A stretch of DNA of 64,000 nt, from the NCBI RefSeq assembly GCF_017348835.2, contig NZ_CP071375.1; one strand, 5' to 3'. The position numbers were made by a program, and so were the translations under genes. Shown here in pieces: positions 25,284 to 28,073 of this stretch (positions are counted from its first letter, which is position 1; each line of letters starts with the position of its first letter). The stretch comes from Escherichia coli. GTDB lineage: Bacteria > Pseudomonadota > Gammaproteobacteria > Enterobacterales > Enterobacteriaceae. The notes under the pieces were generated by a model, which was not told where the DNA came from, did no database searches, and saw only the letters and a program-made list of their open reading frames with translations.

Positions 25284-26021
25284 ATGACGCGCATGAAATA
25301 TCTGGTGGCAGCCGCCACACTAAGCCTGTTTTTGGCGGGTTGCTCGGGGTCAAAGGAAGAAGTACCTGATAATCCGCCAAATGAAATTTACGCGACTGCA
25401 CAACAAAAGCTGCAGGACGGTAACTGGAGACAGGCAATAACGCAACTGGAAGCGTTAGATAATCGCTATCCGTTTGGTCCGTATTCGCAGCAGGTGCAGC
25501 TGGATCTCATCTACGCCTACTATAAAAACGCCGATTTGCCGTTAGCGCAGGCTGCCATCGATCGTTTTATTCGCCTAAACCCGACCCATCCGAATATCGA
25601 TTATGTCATGTACATGCGTGGCCTGACCAATATGGCGCTGGATGACAGTGCGCTGCAAGGGTTCTTTGGCGTTGACCGTAGCGATCGCGATCCTCAACAT
25701 GCACGAGCTGCGTTTAGTGACTTTTCCAAACTGGTGCGCGGCTATCCAAACAGTCAGTACACCACCGATGCCACCAAACGTCTGGTATTCCTGAAAGATC
25801 GTCTGGCGAAATATGAATACTCCGTGGCCGAGTACTATACAGAACGTGGCGCATGGGTTGCCGTCGTTAACCGCGTAGAAGGCATGTTGCGCGACTACCC
25901 GGATACCCAGGCTACGCGTGATGCGCTGCCGCTGATGGAAAATGCATACCGTCAGATGCAGATGAATGCGCAAGCTGAAAAAGTAGCGAAAATCATCGCC
26001 GCAAACAGCAGCAATACATAA
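25284..26021 (+). CDS. bamD: Outer-membrane protein assembly factor BamD (TPR lipoprotein)
   Basis: 245-aa ORF with lipoprotein signal (LFLAGCSGS) and TPR-like repeats. Confidence 0.93.
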
Positions 26022-26044
26022 CAGAAACCTGAAACACAAAACGG

Positions 26045-26058
26045 CAGCCCTTGAGCTG
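26045..26058. repeat. Left copy of the IS4 target-site duplication
   Basis: cagcccttgagctg immediately precedes the IS4 left end; the identical 14 bp recur at 27485..27498. Confidence 0.75.
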
Positions 26059-27484
26059 TAATGCCAGTCAGTTAAGCAACTGACTGGCTCTTTTTCGGGG
26101 CTGTGGGGTATTTCCAGGGCCTCTCCTTTACCACTCTCGGGAAGGCCCTTTCCCTTCTTGTCGGTAATTTCACAAGTTGTCCCATACTTGCAAGATCGCG
26201 CATCAGCTCCGGTATACGTCCCGGTGAAGCGCCCTGCAATGTCATCAGCATTCTCATCACCATTCCGCATGATTCTGAGAAGCTCAGTTGATTTGGCCAG
26301 TAACCTTTCAGATGTTCCGCCATTTTAATCATCTGATATCTCACCAGATTATAAGCCAGTAAGACACCCCACAGCTCTTGCTCCACAAGCTCAGGCTTTT
26401 TACTTCTCAGCGTCAGCCTGCTCAGTTGCATCGTCTGTTTTATCTCCCTGTATCCCAGTTCGATTTCCCAGCGATGACTGTACAGATCCGCCATTTCTCC
26501 TCCGGGGAAGCGCATGGCGTCCGTCATCGACGTCAGCAGATGGCAGACTTTTCCTTTGCGCGTCACGGTCAGCAGGCGGGCTGTCACCTCATTTCCCAGT
26601 CCCGGCCACTTTTTTCGTGCCTGCGGGCTGGTTTTCAGCTTCACCAGATGATCGCCTTTACCCAGTTTTCTGATCTCTTCATATTGCGCTCCCTTTCTGA
26701 GAGGGATCATCCAGTGGCGGTGTTCTCCCGCCAGGCTCCAGGCATTTAACAATCCCAGTGAGTAATAACCTTTATCCATTAACGTCAGAGTGTTATCGCC
26801 GGTTTGTTCTATAAGTTGCTCAGCAAGCTCATTTTCGCTGTTCTTCATCGTGCCGAAGGCTGCAGCCGTCAGCAGATGGCTGGTCAGTTCCATCTGGCAG
26901 ACCATTTTGACCTGCGGGTAGAGCGCCGGGGTCCCGGCATGTGTCTGGCGAGGGAAGGCTGCATCGTTCTCTGGTGTATCCGGTGTGCGCCAGAACACAC
27001 CATCGATGGCCAGCAGGGTCAGGCCGCACCAGTGCGGATGCGGCGTGGCGTTATGCCAGAGCTGCGCTGTTTTCGTGAACACGCGGCGGACAGCCTCACT
27101 TCCCAGGCGCTGGCGGGCCTGAATAACAGCACTGGGGGCAACGAAGGTGCGATTGCCCGGCAGCATGATGTCCAGGCGATTCACAATCTGGTGAAGAGGT
27201 TCTTTACGCTCAAGCGCCATGCCAACAATACACCAGACCATCATTTCGAGGGGAAGACGGCGCTTGCGTAGCGTTACAGTACCTGATTCGGCAAGGCAAC
27301 GAGAGATGAGTTCGGGGTCGAGGTAATCTCCCAGAGAAGTCAGTGGGTTACGCAGAGAATCGTAACGGGATACCAGATCAAGAGCCTGTCCAATGTGCAT
27401 AAAAAAATCCGGAAACGAGTGAGCGTTTCCGGATTCTTACACAGCCACTGGATCGGTCAACTGATCCTTAACTGATCGGCATTA
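26059..27484 (-). mobile_element. IS4 insertion sequence, complete (1426 bp)
   Basis: Terminal inverted repeats taatgccagtcagttaag... (left) and ...cttaactgatcggcatta (right), a single 442-aa DDE transposase ORF, and flanking direct repeats. Confidence 0.9.
26072..27400 (-). CDS. insG: IS4 transposase
   Basis: 442-aa ORF ([16 protein letters not shown]...) recognised as the IS4-family DDE transposase. Confidence 0.9.
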
Positions 27485-27498
27485 CAGCCCTTGAGCTG
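27485..27498. repeat. Right copy of the IS4 target-site duplication, continuing into the original T tract of the bamD terminator
   Basis: cagcccttgagctg followed by ccgttttttt. Confidence 0.75.
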
Positions 27499-27677
27499 CC
27501 GTTTTTTTATTCTGTCAGTTGTGAAACTGAAGCGATTTAGTCGCTATCGATCTCATCAAATATGGCTCGCTTTGAGATATTCCTCAAGTAAAAAAACACC
27601 TCTTCCTGCGATTTCTCACAAAAAAGATTCGTTGACAAAAAGTGACAAAATTATGAGATTTCCATCACACATTTTGA

Positions 27678-28073
<396 letters not shown>

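Follow-up and report, generated by a model that had tools for sequence, protein, structure and literature searches.

IS4 of Escherichia coli K-12 (insG) is the founding member of the IS4 family, and it usually duplicates 11–13 bp of its target on insertion. The target is reportedly pseudo-palindromic, with a consensus of AAA-N20-TTT that is said to derive from the galT, pheST-attenuator and K-12 resident sites. The ends of IS10 and IS50, which belong to the same family, are Dam-regulated, and structures at these ends protect both elements from outside transcription, including fold-backs that sequester the ribosome-binding site. Our literature search found no description of the AAA-N20-TTT consensus and no paper describing the bamD-raiA (yfiO/yfiA) site as an IS4 hotspot; for IS4 together with rho-independent terminators, it returned nothing beyond a general review of small repeats. 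Within the IS4 subgroup, conserved left and right target arms have been described, and IS4 duplications are given as ‘about 10 bp’ and variable, with no mention of terminators as IS4 targets (PMC2266710). Insertion sequences that target palindromes in REP elements are known from the IS3 family (IS1397, ISKpn1), the IS110 family (ISPa11, ISPpu9) and the IS4 family (ISRm22) (PMC1525189).

We analyzed a window of 64,000 nucleotides of E. coli DNA, in which a complete IS4 (26059–27484, 1426 bp, minus strand by its transposase gene) lies between bamD and raiA. This copy resembles K-12 IS4 in its 1426-bp length, in having the same terminal repeats with 16/18 agreement, in a 442-aa transposase with 4 substitutions and in its match to the same family HMM. 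It differs in location (bamD-raiA as opposed to yjgZ-nanX) and in the length of its target duplication (14 bp as opposed to 12 bp). Like the REP-targeting elements, it has entered a hairpin-forming intergenic palindrome and spared genes; unlike them, it sits in a single-copy terminator with A and T tracts and bears terminator-like hairpins of its own at its ends. These end structures share with those of IS10 and IS50 a predicted role in dampening the influence of transcription that arrives from neighboring genes, but with their hairpin plus T run they resemble complete intrinsic terminators and not fold-backs over a ribosome-binding site.

Our reading, to which we give a probability of roughly 0.85, is that this is a standard IS4 insertion into a preferred, terminator-like target which has been hit repeatedly, and that the insertion is close to transcriptionally neutral, with a terminator supplied by IS4 itself. 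It is an ordinary insertion of a known IS into its usual type of target and is already annotated: in the RefSeq record of E. coli PE164, the interval from bamD to raiA contains an ‘IS4-like element IS4 family transposase’. What we add below, namely counts for the hotspot, the resemblance of IS4 targets to terminators and a conserved inward structure preceding the transposase gene, amounts to modest refinements.

Identity and anatomy of the IS4 copy

Aligned with IS4 of K-12 MG1655, the copy showed 98.9% identity, with differences at 15/1426 bases and 4 amino acids. Its termini, TAATGCCAGTCAGTTAAG and the reverse complement of TAATGCCGATCAGTTAAG, agree at 16/18 positions and form the imperfect 18-bp terminal inverted repeats with a TAATGCC start that characterize IS4. 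The right repeat (IRR, 26059–26076), at the transposase-stop end, adjoins bamD, and the left repeat (IRL, 27467–27484) adjoins the raiA side. The transposase gene (26072–27400, minus strand) is an intact ORF of 442 aa; its product scored 305.4 bits against the NCBIfam model NF033592 ‘IS4 family transposase’ (cutoff 115), with a Y(2)R(3)E(6)K motif at residues 307–321. By length, near-identity, termini, family transposase model and YREK motif, the element is IS4.

A candidate promoter for the transposase gene, found by consensus match, lies inside the left end (27433–27460, minus strand) and is sigma-70-like (TTGACC-16-AAGAAT with a TG). Three GATC (Dam) sites at 27451, 27463 and 27474 are located in or beside IRL, near this promoter-like site, in a cluster that brings to mind the Dam-regulated termini of IS10 and IS50.

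The insertion site and its empty allele

The bamD gene (25284–26021, plus strand, 245 aa), assigned from its ORF and from the bamD annotation in identical RefSeq records, and the transposase gene on the minus strand are convergent. IS4 is bracketed by an exact 14-bp direct repeat, CAGCCCTTGAGCTG, at 26045–26058 and 27485–27498, which is one base above the usual range of 11–13 bp. Duplications elsewhere measured 13 bp (IAI39 and a site at rpoD), 12 bp (the K-12 site and others) and 12–14 bp (complete copies in metagenomes). The window copy exceeds the 12–13 bp of these individual sites, a point that counts somewhat against an entirely standard insertion.

Joining the two flanks gave AAAACGGCAGCCCTTGAGCTGCCGTTTTTTT, which can be written as AAAACGGCAGC-CCTTGA-GCTGCCGTTTTTTT and begins 17 nt past the bamD stop codon. 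This reconstructed site folds into an 11-pair hairpin with a 6-nt loop followed by U7 (−17.3 kcal/mol, z = −5.6), and 0/200 shuffled sequences were as stable. The native bamD site accordingly carries the features of a predicted intrinsic terminator, with a GC-rich stem, a short loop and a U tract after the stop codon. The rejoined sequence is the actual allele in K-12 MG1655, where the single IS4 copy lies at 4502090–4503515, in the yjgZ-nanX interval, and has duplicated 12 bp of its target. When the 399-bp reconstruction was used as query against 5426 complete E. coli genomes (at least 80% covered), the empty allele was found in 5009 of them, with one match 100% identical across the 399 bp.

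In the window, the left remnant of the terminator (26038–26058, plus strand) retains the A tract, the entire 5′ stem arm, the loop and 4 nt of the 3′ arm, and folds into just a 5-pair mini-hairpin without a U tract. On the other side (27485–27508, plus strand), the right copy of the duplication (27485–27498) is followed by CCG and the T7 tract (27502–27508), and this stretch folds poorly (−6.4 kcal/mol, z = −0.5). We considered whether the IS4 terminus restores a terminator stem next to raiA by CGGCA...TGCCG pairing, and rejected this on the same weak fold.

The original prediction had described this arrangement well. It placed a complete 1426-bp IS4 at 26045–27498, a span that correctly runs from the outer edge of one duplication to the outer edge of the other, with a duplicated target on each side and a transposase gene antisense to bamD, as the ORF strands bear out. 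Its statement that K-12 has no IS4 at this site agrees with the empty MG1655 allele and the position of IS4 elsewhere in that genome. Its claim that a terminator had been split is upheld by flanks that rejoin to a hairpin and T7 tract which exist in K-12 and as the allele of the 5009/5426 empty genomes; an empty site without the hairpin in related genomes was what it had named as evidence against it.

Predicted consequences for bamD and raiA transcription

From the split terminator, it had been concluded that bamD transcripts lack a terminator and read into IS4, and that the T tract was displaced to a position next to the raiA promoter. The first of these claims is weakened by a putative substitute terminator just inside IS4 on the bamD strand (26063–26096, plus strand). 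It comprises an 11-pair stem with a 4-nt loop, GCCAGTCAGTT-AAGC-AACTGACTGGC (26063–26088), and the tail TCTTTTTC (TCTTTTT; 6/8 positions are T). This IRR-proximal hairpin starts five bases inside IS4 and was the best terminator-like site across a 3.1-kb region. Folding of the 71-nt bamD 3′ context left it intact (−25 kcal/mol), and the same stem folded on the minus strand gave −19 kcal/mol. The hairpin was identical in seven IRR ends with at least 93% identity to IS4; an inward terminator at the IRR end was not evident in distant IS4 relatives, and the hairpin is unaccompanied by covariation evidence. A second hairpin is predicted on the same (plus) strand near the far end of IS4 (27406–27435, −19.3 kcal/mol).

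The bamD 3′ end is thus most likely shifted about 30 nt farther downstream, rather than lost to read-through. We infer this substitute termination from sequence and thermodynamics, and on the same grounds the insertion would be close to transcriptionally neutral. If the substitute terminator holds, it would explain how IS4 persists at low cost beside essential genes.

On the raiA side, the coding sequence (27732–28073, plus strand, 113 aa) retains an intact 233-bp upstream region, which differs from that of K-12 by two single-base changes. A promoter in the spacer between bamD and raiA has been predicted by genomic SELEX (PMC3946193), and the predicted element, CTGTCA-18-TTTAGT (27512–27541, plus strand), is untouched by the insertion. 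The T tract natively lies 3 nt ahead of the predicted −35 hexamer CTGTCA, and its position relative to raiA is the same in the window, contrary to the displacement that had been proposed. Since the target is duplicated, the 27 nt upstream of the −35 hexamer are also preserved unchanged. A consensus scan of IS4 found no promoter-like sites on the plus strand, the outward direction toward raiA. We expect little or no effect on raiA from this arrangement.

The alternative that best survives is that the insertion abolishes bamD termination, so that transcripts cross IS4 antisense to the transposase and reach, or otherwise alter, raiA. The destruction of the native hairpin speaks for it, with the left remnant reduced to five pairs and the right remnant barely folding, as does the C that interrupts the IS4 U tract (UCUUUUUC) and makes it less ideal than the native U7. 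Set against these points are the 11-pair hairpin and its TCTTTTTC tail, 5 nt inside the element, as the top terminator-like site of the region, and the second plus-strand hairpin beyond it. A change in raiA expression is opposed by the result of the promoter scan and by an upstream region that, starting 27 nt before the predicted −35, matches that of genomes with an empty site. In addition, bamD is an essential gene, and insertions persist beside it in 405 genomes. We regard read-through as unlikely, and prefer near-neutral insertion with substitute termination.

IS4 inserts into terminator-shaped DNA

The bamD site can be written as AAA-CGG-[14-bp duplication]-CCG-TTT, and fits the consensus AAA-N20-TTT exactly (AAA-CGGCAGCCCTTGAGCTGCCG-TTT, N = 20, with the duplication centered). 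The resident site in K-12 likewise matches AAA-N20-TTT. At a shorter-loop allele of the bamD terminator in IAI39 and at the rpoD site, the arrangement is AAA-N19-TTT with 13-bp duplications, so the spacing is not rigid.

The tie between IS4 targets and intrinsic terminators comes from the present survey of flanks, for which metagenome contigs were scanned for IS4-type ends, yielding 109 unique flanks that were compared with random controls. A T-run starting 12–20 nt from the IS end was present in 76/109 unique flanks (70%) and in 11% of controls; T frequency peaked at 64–78% at positions 16–19. A perfect hairpin of at least 4 bp at the start of the flank was seen in 39% of flanks versus 4% of controls. 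Among metagenome elements at least 95% identical to IS4, the hairpin-plus-T-run pattern occurred in 18/20 distinct flanks, and in complete metagenome copies the duplications were hairpin tops between A and T tracts. Taken with De Palmenaer et al., these data make the ‘precise’ entry of IS4 into the bamD hairpin the normal behavior of this element.

A copy identical to that of the window at 1426/1426 positions was found in E. coli F2_81 (L130, 1260–2685), between rpoD and mug, with a 13-bp duplication. This site is also terminator-shaped (AAACGC|CACCTTTTCGGTG|GCGTTTTTT). The presence of an identical copy at the rpoD terminator of the near-identical F2_81 suggests recent transposition in this pig-associated lineage.

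These observations fit a simple mechanism. IS4, as a DDE transposase element of the IS4 family, would insert by cut-and-paste into a selected palindrome in which a GC-rich core able to form a hairpin lies between an A tract and a T tract, which is the DNA form of an intrinsic terminator, and symmetric cutting would duplicate the top of the hairpin. The bamD terminator matches this motif so closely that separate insertions have struck it again and again, in either orientation, throughout E. coli. With IS4 in place, bamD transcripts would stop at the hairpin and U-run 5 nt inside the bamD-proximal end, and the raiA promoter region would stay unchanged.

Two further kinds of locus were seen in the metagenome set. 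At L025, L081 and L115 (flanks CAGCCTAGCTGGGGGTT...), IS4 lies inside a hairpin matching the terminal hairpin of IS200 (compare L006, 4218–4245), and IS4 therefore appears to hit the hairpin of another IS as well. At L018 and L116, two IS4-type ends abut in inverted orientation within the first ~50 nt past the matched end (TAATGCCAGTCAGTTAAGCAACTGACTGGCATTA); these look like tiny MITE-like palindromes built from IS4 termini.

Recurrence of IS4 at the bamD terminator

The bamD terminator was occupied by IS4 in 405/5426 complete E. coli genomes (~7.5%), with 69 genomes in the orientation of the window (window junction as query) and 336 in the opposite orientation (synthetic junction as query). 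About 11 further genomes were neither empty nor occupied by IS4. An internal IS4 probe detected 5230 places in 2598 of the complete E. coli genomes, and the bamD terminator therefore holds ~7.7% of all IS4 copies in them. The three opposite-orientation carriers inspected had the same 14-bp duplication as the window. In IAI39, IS4 lies in the window orientation with a 13-bp duplication, CAGCCTTGAGCTG, derived from the shorter-loop terminator allele, which was also found empty in strain EcPF15. IAI39 thus represents an independent insertion in which the stem was cut at equivalent points.

Compared with the window, carriers had up to 52 SNPs in the 2.4-kb left flank and 35 SNPs in the 1.6-kb right flank (up to ~2%), and their IS4 copies differed from the window copy at 4–15 bases. 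The NCTC86 junction was 100% identical over 399 bp, yet its flanks differed by 51 and 11 SNPs. Across a 25-kb stretch around the site, PE164 (pig, China) was 100% identical to the window and F2_81 (pig, Australia) 99.9% identical. With this 25-kb query, 371 records were at least 99% identical to the window at their best-matching place; PE164 and F2_81 aside, all same-orientation carriers among the matches listed were at most 98.9% identical. Of the O121 strains, one was empty and one occupied at the bamD terminator.

At least three independent insertions at this site are certain from the two orientations and the 13-bp allele. The spread of haplotypes suggests many more events than three, although recombination could give the same divergence. 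The bamD terminator is a recurrent IS4 hotspot by target specificity and not the marker of a single lineage. The original prediction had thought that the insertion may mark a particular lineage and had recommended a junction search across E. coli genomes; that search returned the 69 same-orientation carriers on diverged backgrounds, and the lineage idea gives way before occupancy in both orientations with diverged flanks and IS4 alleles. As the site has been hit repeatedly, the bamD-raiA junction is unusable as a clonal marker unless orientation, duplication and background are checked.

Beyond target preference, clonal expansion or selection could account for part of the high occupancy. In its strong form, selection would drive the recurrence, with insertions favored for changing the expression of bamD, raiA or raiZ over and above the quality of the target. 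The share of genomes and of IS4 copies found at this one terminator is compatible with such an advantage, as are the unequal orientations and the landing of IS200C immediately behind this terminator. The target pattern that IS4 shows in general, at unrelated loci, predicts a hotspot by itself; no outward promoter was detected in IS4 by the scan, the orientation bias may merely be clonal expansion, and IS200 is itself known to sit beside hairpins. We consider selection an improbable main cause, somewhat more so than read-through, and retain target preference as the explanation of the hotspot.

A single old insertion, inherited vertically and usable as a lineage marker, is very improbable: the 69 same-orientation carriers do share a junction (99.2–100% identity over 399 bp), and divergence among IS copies (~0.9%) is similar to that of the flanks, but this reading is contradicted by the existence of two orientations, by the 13-bp duplication from a distinct native allele, by recent movement of the element as implied by the perfectly matching copy at another locus in a 99.9% relative, by most of the closest relatives in the region being without the same-orientation insertion, and by the contrast of IAI39 and CE10 with NCTC86 and with the pig strains, which suggests that carriers are spread over several phylogroups.

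The bamD terminator also serves as a landing site for an IS unrelated to IS4. In E. coli GmM077 (NZ_CM183654.1; L006, 4200–4925), IS200C lies immediately after the bamD T tract and leaves the terminator intact (...GCTGCCGTTTTTTT|GTGCACAG...).

Rearrangements can draw on the homology between IS4 copies at fixed terminators, and such copies may act as recombination substrates in this neighborhood. In Shigella sonnei, a ~45-kb inversion flanked by IS4-family transposases has been described, with listed genes that begin at raiA and include an IS4 beside bamE (PMC12795559). This inversion is consistent with occupation of the same bamD site in that organism.

A conserved hairpin precedes the transposase gene

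Directly 5′ of the transposase ATG, IS4 carries an element made up of an A tract, a hairpin and a T7 tract (27403–27438, minus strand), which faces inward and is read from the raiA side. On the transposase strand, the structure AAAAATCCGGAAACG-loop-CGTTTCCGGATTTTTTT folds at −23.6 kcal/mol (z = −6.7). IS4-like elements from metagenomes (loci L014–L111) showed the same order of A tract, 10–16-pair stem, T tract and start codon, with 12 different stem sequences, and in all but one of them the arrangement lay 72–91 nt from the element end. This variety of stems amounts to compensatory variation and speaks for a functional structure, which has the appearance of a conserved terminator facing inward or of a translation-control structure. 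In the 336 opposite-orientation genomes, it is this hairpin that bamD transcripts would meet.

We tentatively suggest, at slightly less than even odds, that IS4 and its close relatives are dedicated terminator-hoppers, in which the transposase picks terminators as targets, and inward terminators restore termination of the upstream gene and shield the transposase gene, leaving the insertion near-neutral. If true, this could explain how single terminators such as that of bamD turn into species-wide hotspots.

At the top of the hairpin that precedes the ATG, the window has G at position 27417 where K-12 IS4 has A. Alleles with A at this position are annotated in RefSeq with a transposase 6 codons longer, from a TTG start (448 vs. 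442 aa).

Other features of the window

Farther along the window, the stretch from ssrA (tmRNA, 46061–46423) to ~54400 contains ypjA/ehaD, which encodes an autotransporter adhesin, then a recombinase fragment, a DUF5507 gene and a tRNA. It has the look of a degraded island that had integrated at ssrA. The tRNA downstream of ssrA has a CAT anticodon and was called Met by ARAGORN and Ile by RefSeq. The glaH (csiD) gene, at ~57533–58511, is a frameshifted pseudogene according to the annotation of the identical PE164 record.
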